Source: a virus (Duplodnaviria > Caudoviricetes). From it: a stretch of DNA of 64,000 bases. The notes below the pieces were generated by a model. It searched no databases, was not told where the DNA came from, and saw only the letters and a list, made by a program, of their open reading frames with translations. Below, piece by piece: positions 1 to 33,752 of this stretch. The DNA lies in the IMG/VR virus record IMGVR_UViG_3300028888_000001. One strand, 5' to 3'. The translations under genes and the position numbers were made by a program. Position 1 is the stretch's first letter. Every line of letters begins with the position of its first letter.

Positions 1-1130
1 GTGCTATAATTGTAAATTATGTTATAATTTTTATCTAAAAATATATAATGAATCCAAGACTTTGTTGGATTTGTAATATTATATTCACCATCATCAGAAT
101 TGTGATTGTTTCCAAAAAATTCAACTTTATAGTTATCTTGTATTTTAAATATTAATGTATTTTCAGCAGCTTGAATTGAGCTGTGACTATATAAAAGTGC
201 GTTATTAACAAAATAATTTTCATATAAAGAAAAATCACCATTGAATAAAATATTTTGATTTTGATACGGATGGATAATTTCAAATTCATTACATAATTCA
301 TAAACAGATTTTATTACAGGAGTTTTTACATAATCATATAATCCAGAATTATCATAAATCCCACCAGCTATTACAAATAGATAATAACCAGCTTGATTTA
401 CTTTAAATAAATTACTATTAATGGTCATATTTATTGGCTTTGTTTGAGTAGTCGTAAACCCATTAGATTCTATAATTTCAGCACTTAAAGAGCTAAGATC
501 TACACCTTCATTGGTAGCTATATTTAATTTATAAAAATATAATCTGCACCCATAATTTATTTTTATAATATCATTTTCATCTAAATAAATCGGTTTGTAT
601 GTACAAATTCTAGCTGCATTATATTTTAAATACAGCAAAGAGGTTGATGATATATCTCCGATAACAAAATAATCATCTAAAAGACTATTATTTCTTAAAC
701 AATTAACATCGGCACTTACCTTTTCAAATTCAGTCGCTTTAAAAATTGTATGCTCATAATCTATTTCCATTCTATAGCTTGTATTCAATTTTCTATAAGT
801 AAGTATAATATAATTAATTTTTTCAGTAATAGTAATATCTTGATATGCTAAATTTTTTACTGTAAATCTATTAATAATAGATTTATTTTTATCGAATGCA
901 CAAATAGTAAACCAATTATCTTCATTATTTATATCACCATAATTATTCACTCTAAGAAATAAAATATTAGTCATATTTATAAAATTACTATGAACTTCAT
1001 TATATGTACTACTAGGATTGATAACATCTCCAATACTATTAATAAATCCAGGTTCATAAATTATTTTTTCTACCTTATAAAATAATTTCGAATTTAGATA
1101 CTTTTCATCCTCTACCAAATCGTTAGAAAG
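1..1130 (-). CDS. Silent variable tail-fibre C-terminal cassette C1 (runs off the window start)
   Basis: Minus-strand frame opens at the recombination core (LSNDLVEDEKYLNSKLFYKVEKIIYEPGFINSIG...) and, by manual translation, stays open to the window edge. No SD/ATG at its head; absent from the ORF track because it is truncated. Confidence 0.8.
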
Positions 1131-1204
1131 TGAATTAGGCTTACGCCTAATTCTATTATTTTTCGATTAATAACGTATTTTTCATTTGATCTTTCTAACG
1201 ATTT
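1117..1204. repeat. 88-bp spacer copy 1: inverted 14-bp recombination cores flanking a hairpin
   Basis: AAATCGTTAGAAAG (1117-1130) ... GAATTAGGC-TTAC-GCCTAATTC hairpin ... CTTTCTAACGATTT (1191-1204). Near-identical to 24627-24714 and to the reverse complement of 30577-30664. Confidence 0.97.
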
Positions 1205-4019
1205 AGCACAATCATTATGGGGTAGCAGTGGAGAACCATCAGAAGAAGCTTCTGGAACTAATTTTAATACTATAACTAATAAAATATCTTTATTAAAAAA
1301 TGAAATAATACAATCTAATAACGGTATACAAAATTTTGCTAGTTATGGCAATTTCCAGCATTATGGTTTAGATAAGAATGGAGCCTTTTTAATATCACAA
1401 AAATATAGAGTATCTAATGATGATCCTATGCAATTTGATAGAGATATTATTATAAATATAGCAGATGGTTTTGCTGTGGGTTATATACCTTTTGTAGATT
1501 CTATTAAAGGACTATGGAGTGGATGGAAAACCGCCCCATTTAAAATTGCAGCTTTTACTGATTTTATTTTACAAATCAAAAGAAACCCAACAGAAAATTT
1601 TTCTGAAATTGCAGATGTAGATGAATTTGTATCTGCAATAACGTTTGATACATATATACATGCAAAAATTAATGCTTTAGGCGATGAAATAAACTCTATA
1701 GAACCAGGATATTACCATCCTCAAATAATAACAGAAAATAATGAGACTATATGGCCTTTAAAATATGGATATGGTAATTTAAATGGAACGTCGTTAGTAT
1801 GGATAGATTCTAAAAATTATTTAACTACGGATCCATCTGTACCAATTGCTGTTGAACCAGGCGATGTTATAGTATTAAAAGATACATTATATAGATATTT
1901 TGTAGTGGTAACTTATGATGAAGGGCAAAATTGGGAAAGCTTATCTAGTACAAGAATGACAGACTTACCAATTGTACAGAAAGGTAAGATAATAATTACC
2001 ATTAGAAAAAATGTTACTGCCTATCTTGAAAAAGATAAAATTAATAAATTTTCAGATATTATAGCTATAAATAAACATTCTCTTATATTAAATAATACTA
2101 ATAATTTAAGAAATGGCCTTATACTTTCAACTTACGGCATTCAAACATTTCAACCATACACAAGTTTTCACCATTATGGATTACATGATACTGAATATAA
2201 TGTAGGTATCAAATATAGAGTATCGAGTATAGTTCCAATAAAATTTGATATGGATATCAAAGTACACGTGAAAGATGGATTTAAATGGGGTTATATTCCT
2301 TTTGAAAATGGTGAAGCTGGTAATTGGTCAAATTGGAAAATCACAGATGTAATAATTAGTGCTAATACAGAATTTATTATTCAAATTGCTAGGGTAGATG
2401 AAAATTATTCTGAAATTGCAGATGTAGATGAATTTACATCAGCGTTAACATTTAATACAATAATAAAAGATGAAATAGAAATTTTATCGAATAAAGCCTA
2501 TACCTTTGAAAATAATATCAAAAGGATTAATAATCTTGATTATGATTTAATGAATGGCGTAGAATGGGAGCTTGGCTATTATGCCCTTGCAGGTAAAACC
2601 AATTCTGATATTATGATACGCATAAATGATTATATAACAATTAGTCAAATGAATAAAATAAATATATGGTGTGATACTGGATACAGATATTTTTACATAC
2701 TATATGATGAGAATAGAAATACTATAGAAGCAATACCATTTTCATCGTCTAAAAGAGAAATCAATGCGGTTGCTAAGAATGCTTCATATATGTCTATTAC
2801 GCTGAGAAGAAATTCTGATGGCGAGATGGATATTTCAGAGGGCGAAGTGGTACATGTAACAATAAATTCACCATTATTTAATAGCTTAGCAAATATAAAC
2901 ACATCAAGCTTATCAGACAGAATTAGCGTTGTTGAAAATATTTTCCGTTATGATAGATATTTTTCACATATTGGAGTTTCAGGAAGCACTAATATTATTA
3001 TACCATCTCAATCAATTGCAGATGTAATGAGAACAAAAAGGCTTGGGTTTAAAGTATTAGAGATTAATGTTCATAAAACATCTGATAATCATTATGTTTG
3101 TTTACATGGCTCAAGCGGAAAATTTGGAGATCAGTTTATTGGAACCGATGGAAGCAATGTTTCAGATATTGCAATTACTAGTGTAACATTAGATTGGATT
3201 AAAGAAAATGTACGTTATAAAAGTAAATATAAAAAATATCAAACTTCGCCTTATTCGTTAGAAGAGATTCTTTATGAAATGAAAAAACTTAATATCATTC
3301 CACTTGTACAATATTCCGATAATACAATGATAGATATATTAAATCAGATAATGGGTGCAAATAATTATATATTAAATTTATATGCAGGTGATAGAGACGA
3401 TAAAACTGATGCGACATGCACTTCATGGACATCTATAGCAAACATCAATGAAGCAGTTGCTAAATGCCAAACATGTGGAAAAACTTATTATCTTGGAGTA
3501 AATCATTCAAATGCTGCATTTAATGATTTCACTGATTCTGATTGGATAAATTATATAAACACTATACATGAAGCAGGATACTATGTAATGGGCGCATATA
3601 TGAATTTACAAGCTGCTGTAAAGTTTTTTGGAATGGGGTGGGATGCATTAGCATCAACCGCACAAATTAATGAAATCGAAACTGGCAATTTATGCAATCT
3701 ATTTTCTGATAATGATTTTAGTGATTTTAATACAACTGGTATTATAGAAAATGGGGTATTAACCATTGATAATGATGATAAAATTTCTCCATCTGTTACT
3801 CTTGATAGTGTATTTCTAGGTGGAGGAAGTTTACATATCCGTTTTGATGGTTTAATTCATATAAAAATAGGTAAGATTGATGACTCTTTAGAGAGTGATG
3901 GTAGTGGCGATGTGTGGGTTTCAAGTTATTTTGAAGAGCAATCACCTACATTTTCCATCGAAACCGATTCAAATGGCGCCATTATATATGAATTGTCTTA
4001 TAAGGCAAGTAGGCTTTAA
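1191..4019 (+). CDS. Silent variable cassette C2 with glycerophosphodiester phosphodiesterase (GDPD)-like domain
   Basis: ORF 1428..4019 extends 79 codons upstream in frame to the core (LSNDLAQSLWGSSGEPSEEASGTNFNT...). GDPD-like motif FSHIGVSG..IPSQSIADVMRTKRLGFKVLEINVHKTSDNHYVCLHG. Confidence 0.8.
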   Translation, partial: LSNDLAQSLWGSSGEPSEEASGTNFNTITNKISLLKNEIIQSNNGIQNFASYGNFQHYGLDKNGAFLISQKYRVSNDDPMQFDRDIIINIADGFAVGYIPFVDSIKGLWSGWKTAPFKIAAFTDFILQIKRNPTENFSEIADVDEFVSAITFDTYIHAKINALGDEINSIEPGYYHPQIITENNETIWPLKYGYGNLNGTSLVWIDSKNYLTTDPSVPIAVEPGDVIVLKDTLYRYFVVVTYDEGQNWESLSSTRMTDLPIVQKGKIIITIRKNVTAYLEKDKINKFSDIIAINKHSLILNNTNNLRNGLILSTYGIQTFQPYTSFHHYGLHDTEYNVGIKYRVSSIVPIKFDMDIKVHVKDGFKWGYIPFENGEAGNWSNWKITDVIISANTEFIIQIARVDENYSEIADVDEFTSALTFNTIIKDEIEILSNKAYTFENNIKRINNLDYDLMNGVEWELGYYALAGKTNSDIMIRINDYITISQMNKINIWCDTGYRYFYILYDENRNTIEAIPFSSSKREINAVAKNASYMSITLRRNSDGEMDISEGEVVHVTINSPLFNSLANINTSSLSDRISVVENIFRYDRYFSHIGVSGSTNIIIPSQSIADVMRTKRLGFKVLEINVHKTSDNHYVCLHGSSGKFGDQFIGTDGSNVSDIAITSVTLDWIKENVRYKSKYKKYQTSPYSLEEILYEMKKLNIIPLVQYSDNTMIDILNQIMGANNYILNLYAGDRDDKTDATCTSWTSIANINEAVAKCQTCGKTYYLGVNHSNAAFNDFTDSDWINYINTIHEAGYYVMGAYMNLQAAVKFFGMGWDALASTAQINEIETGNLCNLFSDNDFSDFNTTGIIENGVLTIDNDDKISPSVTLDSVFLGGGSLHIRFDGLIHIKIGKIDDSLESDGSGDVWVSSYFEEQSPTFSIETDSNGAIIYELSYKASRL

Positions 4020-4117: not shown

Positions 4118-4657
4118 TTACAGAACGTCTTCGAAGTCGATAGTCTTCATAACGCCATTTACAGTCACGAGCTTAACAGAAGCTTCAGCTCCAGGATATA
4201 CAGGTGTTACTGTGCAAAGGAATACTACATTAGTACCCTTAACAACTTTAGTAGCAAGCTGAGCAATAGGATGAATAGCAGCGCCTACCATACCAGCGGT
4301 AACTTGCTCGAATACCTTAAGAGCATTCTCATCGATAGCATCGCCAGTATGAGCTTCAACTTTATATCCACCAAAAGCAGCTCCGCCCTCAACGATAGGC
4401 TCGATAGCATACAGATTGCATTGCATTCCCTTCTCATTAAACTTCATAAGTACGATATTCTTATCGCCAGAAGCGTTAACGATAGTCTGTTCTGCAATAA
4501 CAGCATGATTAATACCATTAACCTGCTGAGAGCCAAGATAAGCAACAGGTTCATATGTTGCGCCAACAAGCTTCTCTGCAACTTCACCCATTGCAGTTGC
4601 TACCTTCTGAGGCATAGCGTTTATTACAGCATTGATTTTCCAACCACCAAGAAGCAT
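4118..4657 (-). CDS. Hypothetical protein with two internal repeats, paralog of 8811..9386
   Basis: AAGGAGG SD. Two repeats (LLGGW..YEPVAYLGSQQVNGINH / FGGY..IHPIAQLATKVVKGTN) aligned with 8811..9386. Confidence 0.8.
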   Translation of the reverse strand: MLLGGWKINAVINAMPQKVATAMGEVAEKLVGATYEPVAYLGSQQVNGINHAVIAEQTIVNASGDKNIVLMKFNEKGMQCNLYAIEPIVEGGAAFGGYKVEAHTGDAIDENALKVFEQVTAGMVGAAIHPIAQLATKVVKGTNVVFLCTVTPVYPGAEASVKLVTVNGVMKTIDFEDVL

Positions 4658-4779
4658 TTTAATTTCCTCCTTTAAATATAATAAATTTGTTATGCTTCAT
4701 CTATTATATACTTGATTGCGCATATAATAGAATTATTTTATAGTTAGTTTGTGTGTTAATTTTTACACGGAGCTGGGAT

Positions 4780-4791
4780 AACATTTTAATA
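4780..4791 (+). promoter_or_regulatory. Putative late phage promoter AACA-N6-TA
   Basis: AACA TTTTAA TA upstream of a structural gene; motif recurs at more than 12 intergenic sites. Confidence 0.6.
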
Positions 4792-4853
4792 AAGCTCAAG
4801 AATATTTGAGTTTTGCGAAAATTATTTAAACTCTTTATTAGGAGGTAACTAAA

Positions 4854-5801
4854 ATGGCTGATAACATCAAGAAAGTATTGCTCCAAAAGAAAGTAGAAAA
4901 TACTCTGTATCAGATTCTCCCGAAGACTGATGCTACTATCGTTAACTATGACAAGACAGTTAGCGGTTCTACTACATCTACTACTGTAGCTGCTGAGCTG
5001 GCTGCTCTTGCACAAGCTATCACTGATGGTGATGAGGCTGTTAAAGATCTAATTTATGGTCTTCAAGATAACGAGACTCTCCAGCAGTCCTATGACACCA
5101 TTAAGGAAATTGGTGATTTCCTTGCAACTCATGAAGATTCCATCGGTGCTCTTGCAGCTCTTATTGCCGATGTGGGTAAGGCTACTGAAGGCTCTACAGC
5201 TGCAACTGGTATCCATGCAGATATCGAAGGCCTTGATGCACGTGTAGATGCTCTTGAGACCGCTGCTGGTACAAACGTATCCAAGACTAAGTCTGGCTCT
5301 GCTGATGCTAGCAATGGTTATGTATATCTTGATGGCGTTCTGACTGCTATCTATGATGATTCTCTTACAATTGGCGCTTCTACAGATGCAGCCAATGCTT
5401 CTGGTACGACCGTATGGCCTCGCTTAAAGCAAGCTGAATCTGATATTGATGGTCTTGAGACCGCTGTTGGTCAGTCTACTGATGCTTCTACCGCTACGAC
5501 TCTGTTCGGTCGTATGAAGAAGGCAGAAGAGGGTCTTGGACTTGCTACTGATACTGCTAACGCTGCTGGCACCACCGCATGGTCTCGCATTCTCAATGCT
5601 GAGAATGATATCGATGCTCTTCAAGCTACTGTTGGTGCTTCCACCGATACTGCAGCTGCTGATGGAACTACACTTTGGGCTCGCTTAAAGCAGGCCGAGG
5701 CTGATATTGATAACCTTCAGGCTGGTCTGCAGGTTCTTCTTGTCTCTACAATGCCTGGTACCGTTGATACTAATACTCTGTATCTGCTTGAGCTTGAATA
5801 A
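4854..5801 (+). CDS. Tail fibre-associated coiled-coil protein
   Basis: GGAGG SD. N-terminal KKVLLQKKV..ILPKT motif shared with 5888 and 15071; DTIKEI motif; four ~21-28-aa repeats (GASTDxAxAxGTTxWxRLKxAExDI). Confidence 0.7.
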   Translation: MADNIKKVLLQKKVENTLYQILPKTDATIVNYDKTVSGSTTSTTVAAELAALAQAITDGDEAVKDLIYGLQDNETLQQSYDTIKEIGDFLATHEDSIGALAALIADVGKATEGSTAATGIHADIEGLDARVDALETAAGTNVSKTKSGSADASNGYVYLDGVLTAIYDDSLTIGASTDAANASGTTVWPRLKQAESDIDGLETAVGQSTDASTATTLFGRMKKAEEGLGLATDTANAAGTTAWSRILNAENDIDALQATVGASTDTAAADGTTLWARLKQAEADIDNLQAGLQVLLVSTMPGTVDTNTLYLLELE

Positions 5802-5837
5802 TAAAAGAACTAGAGAAATTAGTATTAATTTAAATAT

Positions 5838-5871
5838 AAGCACCAGAGGGTTATATAACCCTCTGGTGCTT
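5838..5871. terminator. Hairpin terminator
   Basis: AAGCACCAGAGGGTTA-TA-TAACCCTCTGGTGCTT followed by T-run. Confidence 0.8.
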
Positions 5872-5887
5872 TTGCAAGGTGGTGCTT

Positions 5888-8629
5888 ATGGCTAAAAAGA
5901 TATTATTACAGAAAAAAGTTGGCACATCAGTAGAATCGATTTATACTAAAACATCTGCTGATATTGTTATTTATGATGAAAGTACAGGGCAGAATACAAA
6001 AGATAAAATAGATTCTTTAGAAACAAAAGAAGATAATCTTATTAGAATTGGCACCTGCTCCACAGCTGCAAATGTTAAAGATAAAGTAGTTACTTGCTCT
6101 AATTTTGTTTTATACACTGGAGCTATCATAGCTGTAAAATTCGCAGCTACAAATAGTTATTCTGCCACTGCATCTAGTCCTATCACATTAAATGTAAATA
6201 ATACCGGAGCAAAGAATATTTATTATAATGATACTGCAAATCCAACCGGTACTAACACCACAGCGTTTGGGACAGCTAGTTATTATAATTATTATATATA
6301 TGATGGCACGTATTGGGTATTCTTATCCAGAAGTACAGATGCTAACAGTACATATGCTGCATATTCTTTAGGTATTGGTTATGCTACATGTACAACCGCT
6401 GAAGCTACCGCAGCTAAAGTAGCAGCATTTAAAAATGGTACTTATACATTACATCCAAATGGCATTGTTGCTGTTGAGTTCGCCAATGCAGTGCCAGCGA
6501 ATGCTACATTAAATATTAATAATAAAGGCGCAAAACCAATTTTTTATTGTGACGCAGCCATCACCAATGGAATTATTTCAGGTGGAGACACAGCTACATT
6601 TGTTTATGACGGAACAAATTATAATCTTATTTCTATTAATAGGGCAATTGATACGGCACTTAATAGTACATCAAATAACCCTGTAGAAAATAAAGTCATT
6701 AATGCTGCTTTAAGTAATAAAGTAGATAAGGTTAGTGGTAAAGGCCTTAGTACCAATGACTTTACAGCAGCATACAAGTCTGCATTGGATAATTTATCTA
6801 CTAATCTAGACGGTAAGGTTGATAAAGTGGATGGCTCATCTTTAATGACTGAAGATGAACATACTAAGCTTGCTGGTATTGCTGCTGGAGCTAATAAAAC
6901 TACTGTAGATTCAGCACTTAACTCTAGCTCTACTAATCCAGTTCAAAATAAAGTTATTAATACAGCACTTGGCGCCAAAGTCAATACCAGTGATATTACC
7001 ACTACAGCACCAGCATCTACTAATACAGACGCACAGGTTCCATCTACTAAGAGTATGTATACTGCTCTTAATACTAAAGTTGATAAAGTTAGTGGTAAAG
7101 GATTATCTACTAATGATTTTACAGCAACATATAAAACTGCATTGGATAATCTGTCTACTAATTTAAATAAAAAAGTCAACACTAGTGATATTACTACTGC
7201 AACTCCTACAAGTGAAAATACCGACACTCAAGTACCTAGTACCAAGAGTATGTATACGGCACTTGACGCTAAAGTAGATAAAGTAGATGGCTCATCTTTA
7301 ATGACTGAAGAAGAGCATACTAAGCTTGCAGGTATTGCTACTGGAGCCACTAAAATTACAGTAGACTCTGCTCTATCTAGTTCATCAACTAATCCAGTTC
7401 AAAATAAAGCTATAAATACAGCACTTAGCGGTAAGATAGCTACTAGCTCTATTACTACTAGTGCTCCAGCATCTACTAATACTGATGCTCAAGTGCCATC
7501 AACTAAGAGTATGTATACTGCTTTAGCCACTAAACCAACTGCAACTCTTACCACCGCTGCCCCTTCAAGTAGTAGCACCGATGCTCAAGTGCCTAGCACT
7601 AAGAGTATGTATACTGCACTTAGTAATAAGGTAGATAAAGTATCTGGTAAGGGATTATCTACCAATGACTTTACTACAGAGTATAAGAATAAAGTAGATA
7701 ATACTATTGTTTATTGTACATGTGCCACTGCAGCAGCGACTCAAGTGAAAGTTGTTGATACTCCAGATGGATTCACTCTATTCACTGGTACGGTAATTGC
7801 TGTTAAATTTACATATACAAACACTTATAATTCAACTGCAACAGCGCCGGTAAAACTAAATGTAGGTGGTACTGGTGAAAAGCAAATCTATTATGATGCT
7901 TCAGCAGCTAATACTGGCGCAAATTCATCTATTTATGGTGTTGCTAATAATGTTATATTCTATATGTATGATGGTACATATTGGGTATGGCTTAACAGAA
8001 ACTACGATAATAATACCACTTATTCAAATGCATCTCTTGGAACTGGTTATGCCACGTGCACAACTGCCGAAGCAACTGCAGCTAAAGTAGCAGCATTTAA
8101 AAATGGTACTTATACATTAGCAGCAAATGGTATTGTTGCTGTTAAGTTTACATATGCAGTACCAGCAAACGCTACATTAAATATTAATAATAGAGGCGCA
8201 AAACCGATATACTTTAATAATGCAGTAATCACTGCAGGTGTTATTTCTGCTGGAGATACTGCTACGTTCTTTTACGATAATACCAATTACAATGTTATTA
8301 ATATTATGCATGAGCGTCCTAATATAATATATTGGGGAGCTGGTGCAGCTAGTCCAACTATAAATTCTGCATTTATAACAGGATTAGGAAATTCAGAAAC
8401 TATAGAGAAACAACAACTTGATGCTAAGCAAGTCACTTTAGCCTCGGGTGAATATTTATATATTGCAGTTCCATCCTCAATAACTTCTCCAATAATTAAG
8501 TTATTTGGGTTTGTTACTGCGTGTTCTAAAGTTGGAACTAGCATTGCTGTAAATAGCGTGAATTATGACGTATACAAAGCTCCAAATACTGTTAATGCTA
8601 GCACTAATTATATACTGGAGCTATGTTAA
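5888..8629 (+). CDS. Long repetitive tail fibre protein
   Basis: Start likely ATG 5888 after AAGGTGGTG. Duplicated CxTAA..K/YDGTYW domains at both ends; central repeats KVDKVSGKGLSTNDFT, TVDSALxSSSTNPVQNK, TDAQVPSTKSMYTAL. Confidence 0.8.
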   Translation: MAKKILLQKKVGTSVESIYTKTSADIVIYDESTGQNTKDKIDSLETKEDNLIRIGTCSTAANVKDKVVTCSNFVLYTGAIIAVKFAATNSYSATASSPITLNVNNTGAKNIYYNDTANPTGTNTTAFGTASYYNYYIYDGTYWVFLSRSTDANSTYAAYSLGIGYATCTTAEATAAKVAAFKNGTYTLHPNGIVAVEFANAVPANATLNINNKGAKPIFYCDAAITNGIISGGDTATFVYDGTNYNLISINRAIDTALNSTSNNPVENKVINAALSNKVDKVSGKGLSTNDFTAAYKSALDNLSTNLDGKVDKVDGSSLMTEDEHTKLAGIAAGANKTTVDSALNSSSTNPVQNKVINTALGAKVNTSDITTTAPASTNTDAQVPSTKSMYTALNTKVDKVSGKGLSTNDFTATYKTALDNLSTNLNKKVNTSDITTATPTSENTDTQVPSTKSMYTALDAKVDKVDGSSLMTEEEHTKLAGIATGATKITVDSALSSSSTNPVQNKAINTALSGKIATSSITTSAPASTNTDAQVPSTKSMYTALATKPTATLTTAAPSSSSTDAQVPSTKSMYTALSNKVDKVSGKGLSTNDFTTEYKNKVDNTIVYCTCATAAATQVKVVDTPDGFTLFTGTVIAVKFTYTNTYNSTATAPVKLNVGGTGEKQIYYDASAANTGANSSIYGVANNVIFYMYDGTYWVWLNRNYDNNTTYSNASLGTGYATCTTAEATAAKVAAFKNGTYTLAANGIVAVKFTYAVPANATLNINNRGAKPIYFNNAVITAGVISAGDTATFFYDNTNYNVINIMHERPNIIYWGAGAASPTINSAFITGLGNSETIEKQQLDAKQVTLASGEYLYIAVPSSITSPIIKLFGFVTACSKVGTSIAVNSVNYDVYKAPNTVNASTNYILELC

Positions 8630-8716
8630 ATTCAAGCAAAAAATAAATATGGCATCGCAAATGATACAGCATAATTTTTCACATTTAATTCTATCGATAG
8701 CTTTAATAACATAAAT

Positions 8717-8740
8717 CCCCAAGGCTTTATTGCCTTGGGG
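8717..8740. terminator. Hairpin terminator
   Basis: CCCCAAGGC-TTTATT-GCCTTGGGG. Confidence 0.7.
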
Positions 8741-8810
8741 GTATATTATATTTTTATTGCATAACTAACTTTAAAGTAAATTTATTAATTATCTAAAGGA
8801 GGAAACAGAA

Positions 8811-9386
8811 ATGTCAGGTTATGCTTTCACTTGGCTTGCATCACCATCACTTTTTGGATCTTGGGAAGTTAATATTATCATAGGTAGCTTTCCTCAGAAA
8901 ATAATTGCTGCTTATGATAAGCTTGAAGAAACTATGGTTGGAGCAAAATATGAGCCTATAGCTATGCTTGCTAAGCAGGTTGCTAATGGGACGAACTATG
9001 CTATGCTTGCACAACAGACTATTATCACCAAGCAGCCTCAGAAGAATATTGTTGTTATGAAGTTTAACGAGAGTGACATGGATTGTGTGCTATATTCTAT
9101 TGAGCCTATTCTTATTGGAAATAATCTTTATGGAGGTCTTAAGATTGATCCGAAGATTGGCCATGAGATTGATCCAGAATTTATTGAATCTTTCAAATCT
9201 ACAACTCAAGGCTGGTTGGGTGTTAAGCTTGAACCGGTTATTCTTCTTGCAACTAAAGTAGTTAAGGGTATTGATCTTACGTGGCTTTGCTACGATGCTG
9301 GAGTTACTCCCAAAGATAAGCCAGACGTTTTACTTGTAACAACCAATAGCGTAACTCATTCTATTGATTACGCAGAGATACTGTAA
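8811..9386 (+). CDS. Hypothetical protein, paralog of 4118..4657
   Basis: AAGGAGG SD. Shared blocks YEPIAMLAKQVANGTNY, KNIVVMKFNE, LATKVVKG. Confidence 0.8.
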   Translation: MSGYAFTWLASPSLFGSWEVNIIIGSFPQKIIAAYDKLEETMVGAKYEPIAMLAKQVANGTNYAMLAQQTIITKQPQKNIVVMKFNESDMDCVLYSIEPILIGNNLYGGLKIDPKIGHEIDPEFIESFKSTTQGWLGVKLEPVILLATKVVKGIDLTWLCYDAGVTPKDKPDVLLVTTNSVTHSIDYAEIL

Positions 9387-9396
9387 ATATTAATAC

Positions 9397-22456: not shown

Positions 22457-24640
22457 TTATTCATCGATATTATCATCTATAATGTTATTTTGAGTTACTG
22501 TTAATTTTGATTGATTATCAATTAAATTAAAAGTGCCAGTTTTATTATAGTACTTAAATAAATTATTATTCAAACAAATATATTTTGCCGCATCACCAGT
22601 TTCGATTCCAGTATCAGTATAATAACCTACACCATCAAATATATTATTACTTATAATACATTTATTGCAATCTTGTATATTTATCGCTGGACCAGCAAAA
22701 TCACTAAATGAATTATTTTTTATTAAAACATTTGCCCCTCTAAATACATATATAGCAGATCTATTACCACTATGTAATGGATGATTATAATCATTCTGTA
22801 AATCTTTATCCCAATATGTATTAACATGAGCTATAACTATATTATCTTGAATAACACCATTGCAATGGAAAGTGTTTCCTTGAACGCAAGCTAATATATA
22901 GTTAATATTGTCTCTAAAAATAACGTTATTAGATAAGCAAAGATTTGCTGCAGCACCAATATAAAATCCTGCAAAACTACCGCCATCTACAACATTATTT
23001 CTTATAGAAATACCAACAATATTATGCCCAGCTCCATTATTTGTATCTATACACCATGGACCGTTTTCCATTAAATCTGTTATTGTATCTATATTGTCAT
23101 AATCTTTAAATAATGCGGATGTATGTGTTACATTGTTTTCTTCACACCAATGTGTGCCGCATGAATGGAATCTGCAGCTTTCAACTCTCCATCCTCTACT
23201 TGATACTGGAGGTGTACCGGCATAAGACGCTGGCCTGAATAAAACTCCTTTATTACAATTACTAAAACCGCATTCTTTTATTTCGCAATTCTTTCCAAAT
23301 GCAACTATTCCGATTATACAAAATCTTAAATAGCATCTTATTACTGTCGCATCAAGATGTGGAATTTCATCTGCATTTATAGCTGTAGATCTATGAAATT
23401 TAATACCTCTCGCTAACCAATCCGCTTGTATTGTTAAATCCTGAAAATGTGAACCACTGTCTTGTATCTCAAACATATAATATTTTGAAAAATCGCTAGA
23501 AGCCTTAATAGTTGGATTATGGCAAGAGAAACTAGTGCCTTGAAACGTCATATTAGTATATGTTCTTGGTACAACTATTGTATCTGAAATAGTGTATGTT
23601 TTATTCTTATTGAATGTTATTGTTCCATTAGCCCCAATATAATTAATGGATGCTTGTATCGCTTGATAATAATCCCCGTTATCAATTCCATCAATATATG
23701 CTAGCTCAGGATCTATTATGGCATTTAACCATGGTTTACCATTTACCATATTATCAAATACCATATTACATAAATAACAATAAACAGTATTTTCATCTAC
23801 TGATATAGCTGCATCATTGTGATGCTTTATTGTTATACTTAAATAACCATCACATTCTATTTTAATTAGCTTTCTAATTTTATGAGTATGAAAAACAGCA
23901 CCATCGTAACTCCAAATTATTGAAGCTGAACCATCTTCTTTATTAGTGTCATATATCCTAAGCACTGCCATCAAAGCATCTATTTCTTGTGTTTGAATAA
24001 TTAAATACATACCTTTGCTGACTTTAGGCATATTTGTATTGATCAACCTAATATTACTATTATTAATGGTTCCATTGTCTGCTCTTGAACCCAATTTAAA
24101 ATCATTTATAGCTTCCTTACCAGAATTTATAATTTTTTCTAAATTATTTTTATTGTCTTCACAATGCTCTCTAGCAATTTTATCTTTTGCAGTGAAATTA
24201 TTATATATTATATCATTTATAGTACTACTATTTAAATTAACTATATTTGGAAATACATAGCAATCATCTGGTTTGATCAGTTCTCCGGTTGTCTCATTAT
24301 ATGCATAACAAAAATTAATAAAATAAGCATTATTTGTTTGGATATCTACATTAGTATAATTTTTAACATTAGATGTTGTGCTACGTTCAATAATACGTTT
24401 AATAAATGTTTTATTTTCATCATATAACCCTATGCGATGTATAAAACTATTACCACCATTATTTATAAATCCCAATGTAATATATGAATACTTAGAAACA
24501 TCTATAAAATCGCTCACCCAGAATTTATTTGCTTTAACTACCTTGCCATAAGCATCAAGTTGAACATCGTATTGTACTTTATGTTTATTAAATAAATTAT
24601 TATTTTTATTTTCTGTTGAATATTTTAAATCGTTAGAAAG
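22457..24640 (-). CDS. Silent variable cassette C5 with right-handed beta-helix (pectate lyase-like depolymerase)
   Basis: ORF 22457..24517 extends 41 codons in frame to the core (LSNDLKYSTENKNNNLFNK...). DYYQAIQASINY..GTITF..TYTISDTI cap motif followed by IxNN beta-helix rungs. Confidence 0.8.
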   Translation of the reverse strand, partial: LSNDLKYSTENKNNNLFNKHKVQYDVQLDAYGKVVKANKFWVSDFIDVSKYSYITLGFINNGGNSFIHRIGLYDENKTFIKRIIERSTTSNVKNYTNVDIQTNNAYFINFCYAYNETTGELIKPDDCYVFPNIVNLNSSTINDIIYNNFTAKDKIAREHCEDNKNNLEKIINSGKEAINDFKLGSRADNGTINNSNIRLINTNMPKVSKGMYLIIQTQEIDALMAVLRIYDTNKEDGSASIIWSYDGAVFHTHKIRKLIKIECDGYLSITIKHHNDAAISVDENTVYCYLCNMVFDNMVNGKPWLNAIIDPELAYIDGIDNGDYYQAIQASINYIGANGTITFNKNKTYTISDTIVVPRTYTNMTFQGTSFSCHNPTIKASSDFSKYYMFEIQDSGSHFQDLTIQADWLARGIKFHRSTAINADEIPHLDATVIRCYLRFCIIGIVAFGKNCEIKECGFSNCNKGVLFRPASYAGTPPVSSRGWRVESCRFHSCGTHWCEENNVTHTSALFKDYDNIDTITDLMENGPWCIDTNNGAGHNIVGISIRNNVVDGGSFAGFYIGAAANLCLSNNVIFRDNINYILACVQGNTFHCNGVIQDNIVIAHVNTYWDKDLQNDYNHPLHSGNRSAIYVFRGANVLIKNNSFSDFAGPAINIQDCNKCIISNNIFDGVGYYTDTGIETGDAAKYICLNNNLFKYYNKTGTFNLIDNQSKLTVTQNNIIDDNIDE

Positions 24641-24714
24641 TGAATTAGGCTTACGCCTAATTCTATTATTTTTTGATTAATAATGTATTTTTCATTTGAT
24701 CTTTCTAACGATTT
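24627..24714. repeat. 88-bp spacer copy 2
   Basis: Same as 1117-1204 except two C>T changes. Confidence 0.97.
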
Positions 24715-26479
24715 AGATAATTCCATTGATAATGCAAATTATATTAACAATTTGTTAGGAATTCAACAAAATAGTTTAGCAATACCACCAACTTTAATTG
24801 AAGAAGATACAGCAAGCCAAAGAATTTCATCCAATGCAGATGCTCCATTTATATTAAATGAACCTATATATTCCATTAATAGCCTTATTATAGGTATTAT
24901 GATTAATGCCAAAACTATTGGCACATTAGATATTTATACAATTAAAAGGATAAATGCTATCGATGGCCAGCCTTTTAATTATAATGATTTTACATTAAAA
25001 GAAACCTTAAATGTTACTAATACTGGAGTTCAAATTATTAAATTTAAAAATCCATTTATTCTTCCAGATGATGAATATTTAGCAGTAGCTTCACCAAATA
25101 GCACATGTAGATTTTATTTTGGTACTGGTTACAATCAGAGTTTTTTATATAGATCACATAATACTGAAACTGATACGTATATTCATAAAAAATCATCGTA
25201 TATAAATATAGCGGTCATATATAAAGATATGTATTTAATAAATGATGATAGTATATTTAAAAAAGTAAGTTCAATTTTACAAATACTTAATTTACTTAAT
25301 ATTAATGAAACACTTATTTTAAATGGTCGTGTTAGTACAGCTAAAAATATTGCAAATATTAATAATGCTCCATATTTTTTACAAACAACTTTTAATTATG
25401 ATTATTATATTACAAAAATAAATTTTAAAACATCAACATCGGGTACTATATCATTTGGAGTTATTGATCCAAAAGATTTAACGAATAATAAACCAGAAAA
25501 TTTAAATATACAAAACATACAAACTACAACTGTATATTCTGAAGGTGAACATGATATTATTTTTGATGAGCCACTATTACTTAAAAAAGGATGGCGTCTA
25601 ATGTATTATTTACCATCAGATTCTGCTAAAATTATATATCACAGCGGAACTCCTGCAGATGTCGATCATGGATTTTTATTTTATAATGCTACCAGTAAAA
25701 CACTACAAACTGCTACTAGTTCGTTAAATTTGATATTATATGGCATAAAATCAACAAATGATGATACTACTGATAGTATTTATAAAGATAAAGCCATTAG
25801 TATACTTGGAGATTCAATTAGTACATTTTCAGGCTATATTCCTGAAGGGAATGCTGTATATTATCCAAGCGGAACAATTACATCTGTATCTGATACATGG
25901 TGGAAAAAATTAATAGATGCATTAGGGGCAAATCTTGAAATAAATAACTCATGGTCTGGATCTAGAGTAACTACAACTGCTGGTGAAACTTCTGCAGGAT
26001 GCATGGATAGGTGTGAAAATCTAGGCAATCCAGATGCTATTATAATATACATGGGTATTAACGATTTCAATAATGAAGTGCCGATTGGAGAGTATGATGG
26101 AACTAGTACTATTCCAGAAAGCACTATAACTTTCAGAGAAGCCTATGCAATAATGCTTAATAAAGTATTGACAAAATATCAATTTGCTGAAATTTGGGTT
26201 TGTACTTTGCCACAATGTGAAAGAAATAGTGAAACAGGATTCCCAGAAATTAATCAACAAAATTTACCTTTATATGAATATAACAAAGCTATAGTCGAAT
26301 TGGCTAATGCTTTTGGAGTAAAAATTTTAGACCATAATAAATGCGGTATGACGTATCAAAATATGCCGACATTTAATCCAGATAAATTACATCCTAATAA
26401 AAATGGACATTCGCTTATGGCAAATAATGCAATTAAACAAATGGACCCAAGTATTAAATTTAGGTACCCTATTAGTTAA
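24701..26479 (+). CDS. Silent variable cassette C6 with SGNH/GDSL hydrolase domain
   Basis: LSNDLDNSID at the core; ILGDSIS, NSWSGS, MGINDF, DKLHPN motifs. The annotated ATG at 24683 lies in the spacer and has no SD. Confidence 0.85.
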   Translation, partial: LSNDLDNSIDNANYINNLLGIQQNSLAIPPTLIEEDTASQRISSNADAPFILNEPIYSINSLIIGIMINAKTIGTLDIYTIKRINAIDGQPFNYNDFTLKETLNVTNTGVQIIKFKNPFILPDDEYLAVASPNSTCRFYFGTGYNQSFLYRSHNTETDTYIHKKSSYINIAVIYKDMYLINDDSIFKKVSSILQILNLLNINETLILNGRVSTAKNIANINNAPYFLQTTFNYDYYITKINFKTSTSGTISFGVIDPKDLTNNKPENLNIQNIQTTTVYSEGEHDIIFDEPLLLKKGWRLMYYLPSDSAKIIYHSGTPADVDHGFLFYNATSKTLQTATSSLNLILYGIKSTNDDTTDSIYKDKAISILGDSISTFSGYIPEGNAVYYPSGTITSVSDTWWKKLIDALGANLEINNSWSGSRVTTTAGETSAGCMDRCENLGNPDAIIIYMGINDFNNEVPIGEYDGTSTIPESTITFREAYAIMLNKVLTKYQFAEIWVCTLPQCERNSETGFPEINQQNLPLYEYNKAIVELANAFGVKILDHNKCGMTYQNMPTFNPDKLHPNKNGHSLMANNAIKQMDPSIKFRYPIS

Positions 26480-26552: not shown

Positions 26553-27578
26553 ATGTATAATAATTTTAAAAATGATTTTATTTCAGATTTACAAACACTT
26601 AATTTAGAATTATCAAAAAGTCAAATGAATAAAATATTAGCGGTGCTTGACAGCACCGCTACTAATTATGACATTATCGATCGTGCCAGCGCAAATAGAT
26701 TACAGGTTACTAATGGAGTGCCGCAAAGTGTATATGATTACATACAATGTAAGAAAGCTGAAGGATTATCTAAAGATACATTATATGTATATAAAATAAT
26801 GCTAGAAATATTCTTTCGTACAGTACAAAAGCCTCCAGAATATATTGAGGCTACAGATATAATGAACTTTTTGAGGGAATATCAAAATAACAATAAAATA
26901 TCTAATAGAACGTTAGATAAGTATAGACAATATATTTGTTGTTATTTTGTGTTTATTTATGATTATGGATATATTTCTAGAAATCCATCTCGTCAAGTAA
27001 AAAAGATTAAATACGAAACCAAACCCCAACCAGTATTAACAGAATATGAGACTGAGCTCATTCGTGGGGCATGTAAATCTAAGAGAGAAACAGCAATAAT
27101 AGAATTCTTTCTTTCTACAGCATGCAGAGTTGGGGAATTAGTTAAAGTAAAAATATCTGATATTGACTGGGACCGAGATGAAGTCATGTTATTTGGTAAA
27201 GGATCTAAATATGGTGTGAGTTTTATAACGCCTAGATGTAGATATGCTATAGAAGAATATCTTAAACATAGAAAATTAATAGATCCAGACGAGCATTCAG
27301 ATTATTTATTTATTAGAGAAAGAAAGCCTTATACGTGTTTATCTACTAGAGGAGTTGAAGATATAATAGAACGTATAATGAGTAGAGTTAGTAATATTCC
27401 TAAAAGAGTAACACCTCATACTACAAGAAGAAGCAGTTCTACCAATGCATATCTTAATGGCATGAGTCTAGAAGACATTAGAGGATGGTTAAGGCATGCA
27501 GATATTAGAACTACGGAAATTTATGTAAGAAATTCTACTAACCATATACATGGTGAACATAAGCGATTTGTACATTAA
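26553..27578 (+). CDS. XerC/D-like tyrosine recombinase, candidate shufflon invertase
   Basis: AAGGAGG SD. Catalytic set R (STACRVGEL), K (GKGSK), HxxR (TPHTTR), H (LRHAD), Y (TTEIY); N-terminal core-binding domain. Confidence 0.92.
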   Translation: MYNNFKNDFISDLQTLNLELSKSQMNKILAVLDSTATNYDIIDRASANRLQVTNGVPQSVYDYIQCKKAEGLSKDTLYVYKIMLEIFFRTVQKPPEYIEATDIMNFLREYQNNNKISNRTLDKYRQYICCYFVFIYDYGYISRNPSRQVKKIKYETKPQPVLTEYETELIRGACKSKRETAIIEFFLSTACRVGELVKVKISDIDWDRDEVMLFGKGSKYGVSFITPRCRYAIEEYLKHRKLIDPDEHSDYLFIRERKPYTCLSTRGVEDIIERIMSRVSNIPKRVTPHTTRRSSSTNAYLNGMSLEDIRGWLRHADIRTTEIYVRNSTNHIHGEHKRFVH

Positions 27579-27632: not shown

Positions 27633-28232
27633 TTATTTTTTACAATTAAGATTTTTATTTATCATAAATTTTTGAATGGCATCTTTTGTATGCTTATCAA
27701 GTTTAATGCATCTTTCATATGTAAACGCTGTTATATAAAGTTTATCAATAACAATCTTTACTTTTTCTGAATAATCGGATGAAAATGCTAAACATGAATT
27801 CCATTGATGATCATCTTCTACATAAGAACTCAAATAGCATTCTATATTACCTATGTCAGTTTTAATTAATATAACTCTTTGCCCTTTATTATATTCTGCC
27901 CAATATTCATTTGCACTGGTTTTATACCAATCTAAATTTCCTACCTCCGTATCAATACAAAGTTCTTGTAAGAAGCTTATAATCAGTGTTTCATTATTCG
28001 AAATTTCTAAATCGCATTCGAGTAATGTATCTATATTAATATTAAAATATCTAGCTAGTTTATAAACAAGTTCAACCGACATAGTTGACTTATCCGCTTT
28101 CTTTGAAAGACGACTAATATATCCAGTCGAAACTCCTATCGCCTTTTCAACATCGCCCACCAAAATTTTATTTTGTTTAATAAGAAAGTTTACATTTTTC
28201 ATAAATTGTTTAATATCATATGTTTTTTCCAT
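27633..28232 (-). CDS. Xre-family helix-turn-helix regulator
   Basis: VGDVEKAIGVSTGYISRL..SVELVYKLARYFNINIDTLL; GAGG SD. Confidence 0.8.
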   Translation of the reverse strand: MEKTYDIKQFMKNVNFLIKQNKILVGDVEKAIGVSTGYISRLSKKADKSTMSVELVYKLARYFNINIDTLLECDLEISNNETLIISFLQELCIDTEVGNLDWYKTSANEYWAEYNKGQRVILIKTDIGNIECYLSSYVEDDHQWNSCLAFSSDYSEKVKIVIDKLYITAFTYERCIKLDKHTKDAIQKFMINKNLNCKK

Positions 28233-30590: not shown

Positions 30591-30664
30591 ATCAAATGAA
30601 AAATACGTTATTAATCGAAAAATAATAGAATTAGGCGTAAGCCTAATTCACTTTCTAACGATTT
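30577..30664. repeat. 88-bp spacer copy 3, inverted relative to copies 1 and 2
   Basis: Reverse complement of 1117-1204 apart from one mismatch in the left core (ATATCGTTAGAAAG). Confidence 0.97.
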
Positions 30665-33600
30665 AATGTTTATTTATGGTCAAAAAGATATTGATATCGA
30701 TCTTCCAACACCAACAACTGGATATTTTTATAATTCAAATGGCGAAAAGGTTAATGACGATTCATTTACTAATTCTAAATTTTATATTATTGATATATCT
30801 AAGTATATTGGTTATAGCGTACTAGTAAATATAAAATCAAATGCTCCTTCTTCATTACGTAGAACATTTATTATGCGAAATAACGAAACTACTATTTATG
30901 TAACGGCGGAAAATGTTTTAAATAGTGTAGACGATTATAGCAAATTCACCCATAAAATTCCTTATGATGGAAAATACTTATATATCTCTTGCATTTTAGC
31001 GGCTGAGATTTCTGTAAAAATTAGAAATACATCGTTGACTGAAAGCTATCAACAGAAAAATAGATTATTAAATAATGCCATATATGCGGCTGCTTTAGCA
31101 AATAATTTTACTCACATCGATTTTAATAATGGAGCTGCTGTTATAAATAATGGTGTAGAGTATACACATGACGATTTATCCAATCAAATAGGATTTACAC
31201 TTTATCCTAATACCGATTATTACATTATTAAATTCCGATATACAAAAAATGCGGTATACTTATTGGAAGCTTCAAGCTCTTCATACGATTTATCATATTT
31301 TGTTATGTTCTCAAATGGTGAAATTATACCGCCATTAATTGTAGAGGGCTCAGACTATAAATGGTTAGTTTCTAAAGAATTGATCGGTGATAGAGACGGA
31401 ATAGAATTTAGATTAGACAATAGATCTGGCAAAGCTCCTATCACGATAGATCGTGTTGCTGCATTCATTTCTATTATTGATAACGAAGAAGAAAATAATG
31501 TGGATGATGTTACTATAATAAATAAAAATAATATAATACCATATTTCGATACGACTAATCAAACTGTAATTCTGCATTTTAATTTTATAGATACTTATTA
31601 TTATTATAAAAATGATAATTCTAATACTAACTATAGTATAAATTATAATAATATCGTAAATGAAAAAGCAAATAATGCTGTAATTTTAAGTTATAATAAA
31701 AATGATTTAATAGATAGCTCAGATAGTCAATCGACTGTAAATCGATATTTATGTTATGATTTAAATAGTAATGAATTAAAGATATATAAAATATATAAAA
31801 ATATAGCAAAAAATAATATTTTACTAATGCATTTCTTTGCTACAATATCAACAGCCTCATCGAATTATAATTTTATTATTAGCAACATTTCCAACATTTA
31901 TTATATCGATGGTGTTGAATATAATAATCAAATCCAATCTTCAGATATTTATAATTTAGATTATATTTTTAGAAATTGCATCCATAAAGATTTAACTGAA
32001 ATTAGTAATACTAATTCAATTACACAAAATCAAGATGGAACTATAACTATTGCTCCTGGAGGTTTTTATTTTCCAGGAATCGCCGTGCATGGCTATTTTA
32101 ATGGCGATTGCCATATTAGAATAAGGCTAGAAAGTACTAATGCTATAACTTCTTTATATGCTGCTAAATCTATAGTAACAAGTGGAGGCGGCTATGATAA
32201 ATTGCCGTTTACTTTATTATCAGAAAATGAATCTGTAAATGAAACAGTGTGGTATTTGCATATAACAGATACAGATTATGATAAAGCAAATAGTTATACA
32301 AGTTATATTTTACGTATAGACAATAGACAAAATGCGAATGATATAATAATAAAGTCAATAGAAATTGTAGATTCTGGAATACCTGCGAGGGTAAATTCGG
32401 TCTCTACTTCAACCTCAATCGCATATGTATCTACAAATGGAAGCGATGATAACGTCGGATCAAAAGCAATGCCATTTGCCAGTGTAACCCAAGCACTTCA
32501 AAGCGGAGCTAATTATATCTTAGTAGAACCAGGTATTTATCATGAAAATATAAATTTTACTGATGCTCAAGGAAAAATTACATTATTAAATAATGGCACT
32601 TACAATTTATGTAAATTTTTACCAGATGATGAATCTAAATATATATTATCAAAAACAGAAACTAAAGTAGATGGTTATAATAACGTTTATAAAGCATCAA
32701 GTACAGTTACGTTAACTCAATATTATTTATTCCAAAATGGAGTAAATGATTTAAGCACAGAAATTTTAGACAGCGAAAGATTACCTCAGCAAAGAGGTAT
32801 GAAATACCGTTGCGAGAATACTAAATTACAAAAGTGCAGCATGACTCAATTAAGCACAGCTTTACATGAAATAGAAACATGCACCGATAATGTTTATAAA
32901 TTCTTCCAAGACCCAGAAACTTTAGATGTATATTTTTGTAGGCCTCAAGAAGTTTCAGAAACAAATTATTTAGCTTTTCCAGGAACTACAACTTTATTTA
33001 ATGGATTATCAAAAAATGTAAGCCTCGAAGTTATTGGCATAGAATGTATGTATATGTCTTTTAATGTTAGTTTTGCTGATAGATGCAAAATTGTAGATTG
33101 CAAGGCTGGATATAATCAAGCTAGTGGAGCATTTATTTATAATAGGCAAGTTGGAACTGAATTTATTCGATGCGAAGCCATAAGATGTATTAATAATTCT
33201 AATGGAGATGGCTTTAACGGGCATTCTATTAATGCCGGTGATATTTATTCTAAACAAACTACAGTAAGTTTGATAGATTGTTGGTCTCATGATAATTACG
33301 ATGATGGTTATTCAGATCATGAAAGAAGCGAAATCACTATTCAAGGCGGATTATATGAATGGAATGGTAAAGGTGGTATAGTACCTTCATATGGTTCTCA
33401 TTGCACTTGCTATAATGTATATTCTCGCAATAATTTTGCTGGATTTTATTATGTTGGAGATGTTGATGAAGCCGAGGGCGGTATATATGGTCAAATGTCA
33501 TGTTTCTATTGTCATGCTGAAAATAATAATAGGGGTGGCGCAAAAACTGGTTTTGGCATAACCGGTAATGGTAATAGAATGGAACTTATAGGGTGTACTT

Positions 33601-33752
33601 CTATAGGTAATAATACAGGGTATAGTTGTGGTACAAATAATGTAGTTAGAATGATAGATTGTAAAGCGTTAAACAATTCAGTTTCAGTAACAAATTTTCC
33701 TGAAACTGCAAACGTAGAGATTATAACTACTGATATTGTGTCTGCTCAGTAA
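30651..33752 (+). CDS. Silent variable cassette C8 with right-handed beta-helix domain
   Basis: LSNDL-MFIYG in frame with ORF 30666. AYVSTNGSDDNVGSKAMPFASVTQAL cap, then GDGFNGH / HDNYDDGYSDHE beta-helix rungs. Confidence 0.85.
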   Translation, partial: LSNDLMFIYGQKDIDIDLPTPTTGYFYNSNGEKVNDDSFTNSKFYIIDISKYIGYSVLVNIKSNAPSSLRRTFIMRNNETTIYVTAENVLNSVDDYSKFTHKIPYDGKYLYISCILAAEISVKIRNTSLTESYQQKNRLLNNAIYAAALANNFTHIDFNNGAAVINNGVEYTHDDLSNQIGFTLYPNTDYYIIKFRYTKNAVYLLEASSSSYDLSYFVMFSNGEIIPPLIVEGSDYKWLVSKELIGDRDGIEFRLDNRSGKAPITIDRVAAFISIIDNEEENNVDDVTIINKNNIIPYFDTTNQTVILHFNFIDTYYYYKNDNSNTNYSINYNNIVNEKANNAVILSYNKNDLIDSSDSQSTVNRYLCYDLNSNELKIYKIYKNIAKNNILLMHFFATISTASSNYNFIISNISNIYYIDGVEYNNQIQSSDIYNLDYIFRNCIHKDLTEISNTNSITQNQDGTITIAPGGFYFPGIAVHGYFNGDCHIRIRLESTNAITSLYAAKSIVTSGGGYDKLPFTLLSENESVNETVWYLHITDTDYDKANSYTSYILRIDNRQNANDIIIKSIEIVDSGIPARVNSVSTSTSIAYVSTNGSDDNVGSKAMPFASVTQALQSGANYILVEPGIYHENINFTDAQGKITLLNNGTYNLCKFLPDDESKYILSKTETKVDGYNNVYKASSTVTLTQYYLFQNGVNDLSTEILDSERLPQQRGMKYRCENTKLQKCSMTQLSTALHEIETCTDNVYKFFQDPETLDVYFCRPQEVSETNYLAFPGTTTLFNGLSKNVSLEVIGIECMYMSFNVSFADRCKIVDCKAGYNQASGAFIYNRQVGTEFIRCEAIRCINNSNGDGFNGHSINAGDIYSKQTTVSLIDCWSHDNYDDGYSDHERSEITIQGGLYEWNGKGGIVPSYGSHCTCYNVYSRNNFAGFYYVGDVDEAEGGIYGQMSCFYCHAENNNRGGAKTGFGITGNGNRMELIGCTSIGNNTGYSCGTNNVVRMIDCKALNNSVSVTNFPETANVEIITTDIVSAQ

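Follow-up and report, generated by a model that had tools for sequence, protein, structure and literature searches.

A candidate shufflon of fourteen enzyme cassettes for one tail fibre, dispersed over the genome of a jumbo phage

The pilV shufflon of the R64/IncI1 plasmids, operated by Rci, varies a pilus adhesin by means of four segments and seven sites packed within ~2 kb, free of passenger genes, and Rci avoids deletion between directly oriented sites. Mu Gin, P1 Cin and p15B Min are serine invertases which rely on an enhancer and Fis, and switch host range by in-frame inversion of fibre C-termini. Several crossover sites are found in p15B Min (PMC6109161). The Rin shufflon, identified in Bifidobacterium prophages (Mavrich et al. 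2018, PMC6109161), consists of five cassettes gathered in one compact locus; the phage is a temperate siphophage, and reads have shown the inversions. A shufflon of BV01-like Phocaeicola phages (PMC13596623, a 2026 preprint) holds three cassettes and a 10-bp motif in 1.7 kb, and all configurations have been detected in reads. Here we describe an array of cassettes residing in a stretch of 64,000 nucleotides (hereafter, the window) of the virus record IMGVR_UViG_3300028888_000001 (Caudoviricetes), and spreading beyond it. The array is likely a multiple-inversion system, or shufflon, serving the distal half of a single tail-fibre or tail-spike gene in a jumbo phage of the lytic type.

The window corresponds to the minus strand of positions 233541-297540 of a 313,331-bp record which has a 127-bp terminal repeat, a completeness rating of 100%, and a G+C content (GC) of 32.5%. 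A sequence-only reading of the window had assigned it to a jumbo phage, and had reported eight copies of a 14-bp core (CTTTCTAACGATTT), each encoding LSND in frame with a long open reading frame (ORF), an intact tyrosine recombinase within the array, and possibly more cassettes to the left. The length of the complete record bears out the first point. The eight cores are all present on the strands and at the positions reported, seven of them exact and one (30577-30590, minus strand) with a single mismatch; LSND is in frame at every copy with an ORF of 592-1033 codons, and the array does extend outside the window. A core count as high as that observed was reached in none of 100 dinucleotide-preserving shuffles of the window. 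A two-mismatch match to the core at 39957 was judged unrelated. In the whole genome there are 14 cores, arranged as seven back-to-back inverted pairs. Seven cores lie on each strand, and every one points into a cassette. A shared 60-bp spacer lies between the cores of six pairs, and the cores of the seventh bound a 5.1-kb "master" segment. The 14 cassettes measure 506-1033 codons each, and total 32.2 kb, or 10.3% of the genome. The main components are listed below; positions are those of the window, unless otherwise indicated.

1..1130, minus strand: cassette C1, silent; core at 1117-1130; truncated by the start of the window (full length in the genome 891 codons); GDPD phosphodiesterase
1131..1190: spacer, 60 bp between back-to-back cores, with a 9-bp-stem hairpin (GAATTAGGC..GCCTAATTC)
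1191..4019, plus strand: cassette C2, silent; 942 codons; no Pfam domain found
10886..13111, minus strand: cassette C3, silent; 741 codons; GDSL/SGNH esterase; core at 13098-13111
13112..13175, minus strand: "dead-end" partner junction, made of a terminator hairpin (13145-13168) and GTTACTGAA, abutting the C3 core
13112..18249: "master" segment, 5.1 kb, bounded by the inverted cores at 13098 (minus) and 18250 (plus)
15071-15868: orf265, in the master segment, in an operon with orf384 and the fibre N-terminus
15897-17051: orf384, in the master segment, in the same operon
17077..18249, plus strand: constant fibre N-terminus, 391 aa; strong Shine-Dalgarno (SD) sequence; GC 42.5%; ends ..DQLTE directly before the core
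18250..20427, plus strand: cassette C4, currently expressed; 725 codons; calcineurin-like metallophosphoesterase; terminator at 20442-20475
22457..24640, minus strand: cassette C5, silent; 727 codons; right-handed beta-helix (weak Pfam match); core at 24627-24640
24701..26479, plus strand: cassette C6, silent; 592 codons; GDSL esterase; core at 24701-24714; a recombinase gene follows directly
26553..27578, plus strand: Int1, Xer-like tyrosine recombinase, 341 aa; Pfam Phage_integrase 7e-26; Pfam matches PF13495 and PF00589
28563..30590, minus strand: cassette C7, silent; 675 codons; core at 30577-30590
30651..33752, plus strand: cassette C8, silent; 1033 codons; core at 30651-30664
genome 124125-125149, outside the window: Int2, 341 aa, 83% identical to Int1

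Hallmarks of shufflons are short asymmetric sites, at least three and in both orientations, one constant 5' part serving several start-less in-frame 3' parts, and a dedicated recombinase encoded in the array. All are found here, with 14 cores, a single N-terminus and Int1 and Int2. Another hallmark, a compact contiguous locus, is missing, and the pairs are spread over the 313-kb genome.

In every copy the core is read as CTT TCT AAC GAT. In this genome CTT makes up 27%, TCT 41% and GAT 82% of the codons for the respective residues, and AAC is the less common Asn codon, at 19%; with this usage, 13 additional LSND motifs would all be spelled by the same four codons with P ~7.5e-24. The constraint on the core therefore acts on DNA, not on protein. 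The part of the core common to all sites in four lineages is 11 bp long (TTTCTAACGAT). Position 1 varies in relatives with the upstream side, and positions 13-14 vary with the cassette; the C7 core is a variant ending in ..GATAT. As far as can be judged from the sequences, such variation fits a crossover taking place inside the common 11 bp. A recurring sequence found within the cassettes (GATTTAGAA) was considered as an inverted half-site, and was discarded in favour of a protein motif, D-L-E, because the half-site would imply a 13-bp central region.

Only the core at 18250 follows a translated N-terminus, as the sequence-only reading had it, with 391 codons running from the ATG at 17077. The N-terminus is single copy in the genome. 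Of the two signals which had been noticed upstream, the SD (TAAGGAGG) stands, and the promoter motif could not be verified, the 59 sites found by a sigma-70 scan being only modestly above the shuffles (mean 40.5, sd 5.1); a "late" promoter motif is not supported in the window either. GC falls exactly at the core, from the 42.5% of the N-terminus to 25-30% in 13 of the 14 cassettes, and to 36% in the remaining one. This compositional break suggests that the cassettes have a different origin, or a different expression history. The N-terminus matched no Pfam or PHROG family. Its relatives carry Peptidase_S74, Mtd_N, Phage_fiber_2, PTR and phage fibre repeat domains. An AlphaFold2 model of the N-terminus, with a mean predicted local distance difference test score of 37, was not used, and matches to atlas features (0.84-0.86) were taken as leads only.

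The upstream flanks of the cores in the window fall into four types: the two ends of the spacer, S1 and S2, the end of the N-terminal exon (..CTTACTGAA), and the dead end, which terminates in ..GTTACTGAA behind a terminator. The last 8 nt of the dead-end junction are the same as the end of the N-terminal exon. The spacer found at 1131-1190 recurs at 24641-24700 and again, inverted, at 30591-30650, and its hairpin folds in either direction (z -3.0 and -4.7). Throughout the genome the spacer runs from S1 to S2 at three pairs, and from S2 to S1 at three. Three near-identical sequence variants of the spacer exist, and distant pairs share variants in opposite orientations. When the outer cores of two pairs recombine by inversion, their spacers trade places and are turned around, and this matches the observed pattern. 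The spacer pattern is the footprint expected from past inversions, and is suggestive, not proof, of them.

The silent cassettes are insulated by the spacer hairpins and by terminators. Each cassette is closed by a terminator of its own, and C3 is in addition preceded by a strong one. None of the 14 cassettes has an SD-linked in-frame ATG, GTG or TTG in the interval from -20 to +150 codons. No homology is common to the 3' ends, except for those of the two cassettes linked to a recombinase, and this lack argues against two-sided gene conversion.

It may be argued that the cassettes are independent genes, sharing a leader and an LSND motif, and are translated from non-canonical starts or from an ATG in the spacer. 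An in-frame ATG is indeed located 6-7 codons before the core in three spacer variants, at three of the six S2-side junctions (24683 in the window, 27731 and 126751 in the genome), and would yield M(T)YFSFD-LSND. Yet, this ATG is not conserved, being due to single-base differences between otherwise identical spacers, and neither this nor any other in-frame start is preceded by an SD-like motif, which is present at the first start of 121 of 198 other long ORFs (61%). Moreover, the divergent pairs are only 60 bp apart, with a terminator hairpin in between; a protein motif does not explain identity of the core at the codon level, and the same core is non-coding in a related contig (L058, see below). 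All this makes independent genes a very improbable explanation.

The core pairs are located at 27.7, 34.5, 126.7, 266.9, 272.9, 279.3/284.4 and 296.4 kb of the genome. One could object that a single compact locus was scattered by the assembler, misled by the repeated 88-bp core-spacer-core units. The contigs of the source run break only at these repeats, and do so at every spacer pair, the repeat piece being found at ~4x depth. The dispersal is nonetheless real, because all segments between pairs, including those of 92 kb and 140 kb, carry cassettes at both ends, so that re-ordering cannot unite all of them; the same pairs are found, in addition, in independent contigs of relatives. An assembly artefact is scarcely credible, and has the poorest chances among the explanations considered here.

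Int1 and Int2 feature a SAM-like core-binding domain and a catalytic domain, and the hexad R192-K219-H289-R292-H315-Y324 is intact in both, its H-R, R-H and H-Y residues being 3, 23 and 9 positions apart, respectively. Integrity of the recombinase in the window had been anticipated from the sequence, and is confirmed by the hexad and by the Pfam match. The best matches in the PDB are XerA and XerD structures. NCBIfam Xer models are the top matches as well, all of them below the cut-offs, so the recombinase is not a bona fide XerC, XerD or XerA. An integron can be dismissed: integron-integrase models score far below the cut-offs, and the cassettes carry a site just at the 5' end, with no common 3' element. 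No match to serine recombinases (PF00239), which define the Gin/Cin/Min/Pin class, nor to reverse transcriptases (PF00078), required in diversity-generating retroelements, was found in the whole genome. Each recombinase gene is located directly 3' of a GDSL cassette, Int2 following the one at genome 126730 (minus strand). A conserved block, including the SD TAAGGAGG, precedes both genes, and the Int1 block holds TGTATATTATA; this sequence, found upstream of both recombinases, occurs nine times, against ~2 expected. The module made of a GDSL cassette and a recombinase is seen in C6-Int1, in 126730(-)-Int2 and in the contig P0002, and a cassette-then-recombinase module is also found in the contig L056 (both contigs are described below). 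The recombinase could be co-transcribed with the fibre when the cassette of the module sits in the expression site. A helix-turn-helix (HTH) protein encoded next to Int1 (27633..28232, minus strand; Cro/C1-type) may be a regulator; none is encoded beside Int2.

The expression site would comprise the operon promoter, orf265, orf384 and the N-terminus, and would end at the asymmetric core. The 13 other cores would be stored as back-to-back pairs, each core leading into a start-less cassette provided with a terminator. The Xer-like recombinase, in its two paralogous forms, is expected to pair two inverted cores and invert the DNA in between, the crossover occurring within TTTCTAACGAT; as exchange would take place inside the common core, the frame ..T-E|L-S-N-D.. 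would be preserved. The N-terminus would thereby gain a new enzymatic head, either a phosphodiesterase, a metallophosphoesterase, an SGNH esterase or a beta-helix, and the new head would change which cell-wall polymer is recognised or degraded by the virion. A single inversion would be enough to bring any of seven cassettes, which face the core of the expression site, to the N-terminus: C3 (5.2 kb), C5 (6.4 kb), C7 (12.3 kb) and C1 (17.1 kb) in the window, and outside it the cassettes at 126791 (~152 kb), and at 34605 and 27752 (~62-69 kb across the record ends). The remaining six would need two inversions. The sequences show the anatomy, the conservation of the core as DNA, the integrity of the recombinases and the breaks of homology at the core in relatives; from these we infer the occurrence of inversion, its frequency and its effect on host range.

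Additional information comes from relatives. In the contig P0002 (ENA ERZ1029116, 12,996 bp) the N-terminus is 88% identical over residues 1-388, and is followed by LSND and by a GDSL cassette, after which a 340-aa recombinase and then a back-to-back pair are found. The contigs L046 and L047, both from one Joint Genome Institute (JGI) metagenome, share 96.8% identity over a stretch of 2237 nt which stops at the core, past which they are unrelated; the encoded proteins are 96% identical through ..ITELSND, and then diverge. In L047 there is also a silent back-to-back pair (xTTTCTAACGATGT), whose hairpin spacer measures 45 bp. These breaks of homology support the core as the exchange point, as judged by sequence comparison. 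L056, a contig of 300.8 kb, encodes a recombinase 47% identical, and hosts two enzyme-cassette pairs (beta-helix/GDSL and pectinesterase/GDSL) with a 62-bp spacer carrying a different hairpin. The core is here TTTCTAGTGATAT (xTTTCTAGTGATAT), read (I/F)SSD. A variant recombinase is thus found along with a variant core, and therefore recombinase and site differ together.

A different arrangement occurs in L058, a 262-kb ENA contig (scaffold_30 of ERZ920241) encoding a recombinase 58% identical to Int1. At 7990-8835, 1.2 kb from the recombinase, a 0.78-kb segment is enclosed by perfect inverted repeats which measure at least 32 bp and contain CTTTCTAACGATAT; the segment is located between two divergent, mutually homologous fibre-like genes having their own starts. 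The core lies here outside any long frame, which is the clearest sign that it is a recombination site, not a peptide motif. The L058 element is likely an inverton of the promoter type, choosing between two fibre genes. Ten contigs carrying an L058-type recombinase all end before the inverton. In the viral contig collection, exact patterns of the expression junction and of spacer plus core gave no match, no recombinase locus was confirmed by tblastn, and a search with the N-terminus retrieved only a short, widespread fibre motif. A 20-nt match to the junction in genome contigs, inside a pyrD/pyrK-like gene of a metagenome-assembled genome of Gammaproteobacteria, was taken as chance. In P0002 a dCMP deaminase gene lies directly 3' of the left-hand GDSL cassette, on the same strand; its counterpart in the window faces C3 in convergent orientation. 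Inversion from core to core does not account for this rearrangement.

Whether the cassettes are switched in the population was assessed on the contigs of the sequencing run, in which rare isomers are not visible. The run (contig record SRR9006805) is from sheep gut, is probably the source of the record, and is the sole public run holding the phage; four goat-gut runs hold only 6-10% of the sampled words. Several observations weigh against a shufflon at work. No alternative junction, and no strand-changing joint, was found at any core in the source-run contigs, which display the reference junctions. Contigs spanning 13968-24654 and 12300-13984 pass unbroken, at an even depth of ~27, through the cores at 18250 and 13098, respectively, so that one isomer dominates the sample, and a closed 313-kb assembly exists. 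Relatives differing at the core differ by 3-12% elsewhere as well, which denotes exchange over evolutionary time rather than switching within a population. The GDSL cassette of P0002 matches none of the 14 cassettes by BLASTP, and part of the variation must therefore come from gene flow, not from internal shuffling. Recombinase homologues at 44-49% identity (L067, L068) have neither paired cassettes nor core-like repeats within 21 kb. Finally, some inversions would flip up to ~150 kb, and recombination between cores in direct orientation could delete essential DNA. "Skips" listed in the contig mapping were treated as noise, their sides being only 20-25 nt long in AT-rich DNA.

The dominance of one isomer, the absence of BLASTP matches between the cassettes of close relatives and the 14 described here, and the divergence accompanying each difference at the core could all be accommodated if the array were an archive, not a switch. 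According to this view, heads are swapped rarely, by site-specific or homologous exchange within the genome or between co-infecting relatives, and the silent cassettes make up a store with slow turnover, as opposed to a phase variation programmed to act at high frequency. However, 13 frames of 506-1033 codons have remained open at 32.5% GC, which needs recurrent selection on expression, and both recombinase paralogs are intact, each with its own SD. In addition, spacers are found in both orientations within one genome, and the 11-14 bp in common are too few for efficient homologous recombination. We hold the archive to be unlikely, though worth more attention than the other alternatives.

A shufflon remains the preferred interpretation, and the swapping of C-termini by inversion put forward in the sequence-only reading can be upheld in part: the anatomy fits a shufflon and relatives support the core as exchange point, though inversion was not seen. 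A broader picture, for which we see an even chance, is that of a chromosome-scale shufflon. A jumbo phage of virulent type would pick among 14 whole-enzyme, receptor-degrading heads by programmed inversions ranging from 5 kb to about half of the 313 kb; the core would act as well as a universal joint for exchange between related jumbo phages of the ruminant gut, recombinase and core co-varying. Such a system would exceed all known shufflons in size, and would be the first one described in a jumbo phage.

The cassettes are mostly unrelated to one another. The metallophosphoesterase domain is found in the active C4 and in two silent cassettes, and a fourth cassette is 35% identical to C4. The GDSL/SGNH esterase domain is found in C3, C6 and the cassette at genome 126730 (minus strand), the GDPD phosphodiesterase domain in C1 and the cassette at genome 126791 (plus strand). 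C6 also matches PHROG 5240, annotated as tail fiber protein. By their predicted domains, the cassette enzymes may act on phosphodiester-linked and acetylated wall polymers. The types of enzymes, the strong use of SD sequences and the presence of CHAP and XkdX genes in the contigs L056 and L067 point to a host which is probably Gram-positive and teichoic-acid-bearing. Similar terminator hairpins (CCxxAGGGA-loop-TCCCTxxGG) close most cassettes, and members of the same family are found in L056 near 6170, 11060 and 15920.

The array includes the following other genes.

4118..10358: passenger genes between C2 and C3, several
5879-8629: second fibre-like protein, with repeats in common with the N-terminus, in the C2-C3 interval
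9475-9954: NrdG-like protein, in the C2-C3 interval
9957-10358: dCMP deaminase, in the C2-C3 interval, converging on C3
13930-14005, minus strand: tRNA-Ile(TAT), inside the master segment
14065-14913, minus strand: HNH endonuclease, inside the master segment
20538..22415, plus strand: passenger gene, protein of 625 aa with an endolysin-like domain (ELLD)

The tRNA gene accounts for short matches, near 13.96 kb, from unrelated goat-gut contigs. The 625-aa neighbours of the two arrays were compared as possible paralogs, and are not. A giant open frame of at least 4520 codons (genome 2-13561, minus strand) runs off the start of the record, and therefore wraps around the arbitrary contig ends.

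The novelty attributed to the locus in the sequence-only reading was overstated, because tyrosine-recombinase shufflons of phage receptor-binding proteins have been published (PMC6109161, PMC13596623). Within the collection of papers searched, none linked a shufflon to jumbo, huge or mega phages. What is new here is the scale, the dispersal in hairpin-insulated pairs, the set of 14 whole-enzyme cassettes, the two recombinase paralogs, and the setting in a clade of jumbo phages of the ruminant gut. Among host-range switches of its kind, the array seems to be the largest and the most scattered, although no switching was seen directly. If active, it would provide one uncultured gut phage with 14 interchangeable enzymes targeting the cell wall, all fitting one fibre scaffold, an inherent means of responding to hosts which vary their surface. 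It would also imply that programmed inversions, from tens of kb to >100 kb, are compatible with a large phage chromosome, and that a system of this sort can be scattered. Metagenomic assemblies of such phages would represent single isomers, and host-range predictions made from the sole expressed fibre would overlook 13 of the 14 specificities. Together with the small recombinase, the 11-14-bp site is a candidate tool for modular fibre swapping in laboratory phages.

The comparison with known systems sets the locus apart from the Gin, Cin and Min invertases, since the genome carries no serine recombinase gene. The L058 element, in which the core forms inverted repeats around a 0.78-kb segment close to a homologous recombinase, resembles promoter invertons of the fimS type; in the window, by contrast, the site is inside coding sequence, and swaps protein ends, not promoter direction. 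The R64 shufflon is similar in having a tyrosine recombinase, asymmetric sites in both orientations, and one constant N-terminus served by several C-termini; it differs because passenger genes are interspersed here, and the recombinase is nearest to Xer models, below their cut-offs. In BV01-like phages, as proposed here, a recombinase-flanked multi-cassette inversion alters the distal end of a carbohydrate-binding tail fibre, but the cassettes are short tails (PMC13596623), whereas whole enzyme domains are found in this phage. Rin differs in that the present phage hosts 14 cassettes of 1.5-3.1 kb across 313 kb, paired around hairpin spacers, and two recombinase paralogs, and inversion has been seen in Rin and not here. 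Rin nevertheless shares a phage-encoded tyrosine recombinase adjoining the receptor-binding-protein gene, and a constant N-terminus combined with dissimilar C-terminal cassettes (PMC6109161). The Rin site is an asymmetric 11-bp repeat (TTCCCTAACCC; PMC6109161), the common part of the core is also 11 bp long (TTTCTAACGAT), and both contain CTAAC. The likeness to Rin and Rci is proposed as one of function.

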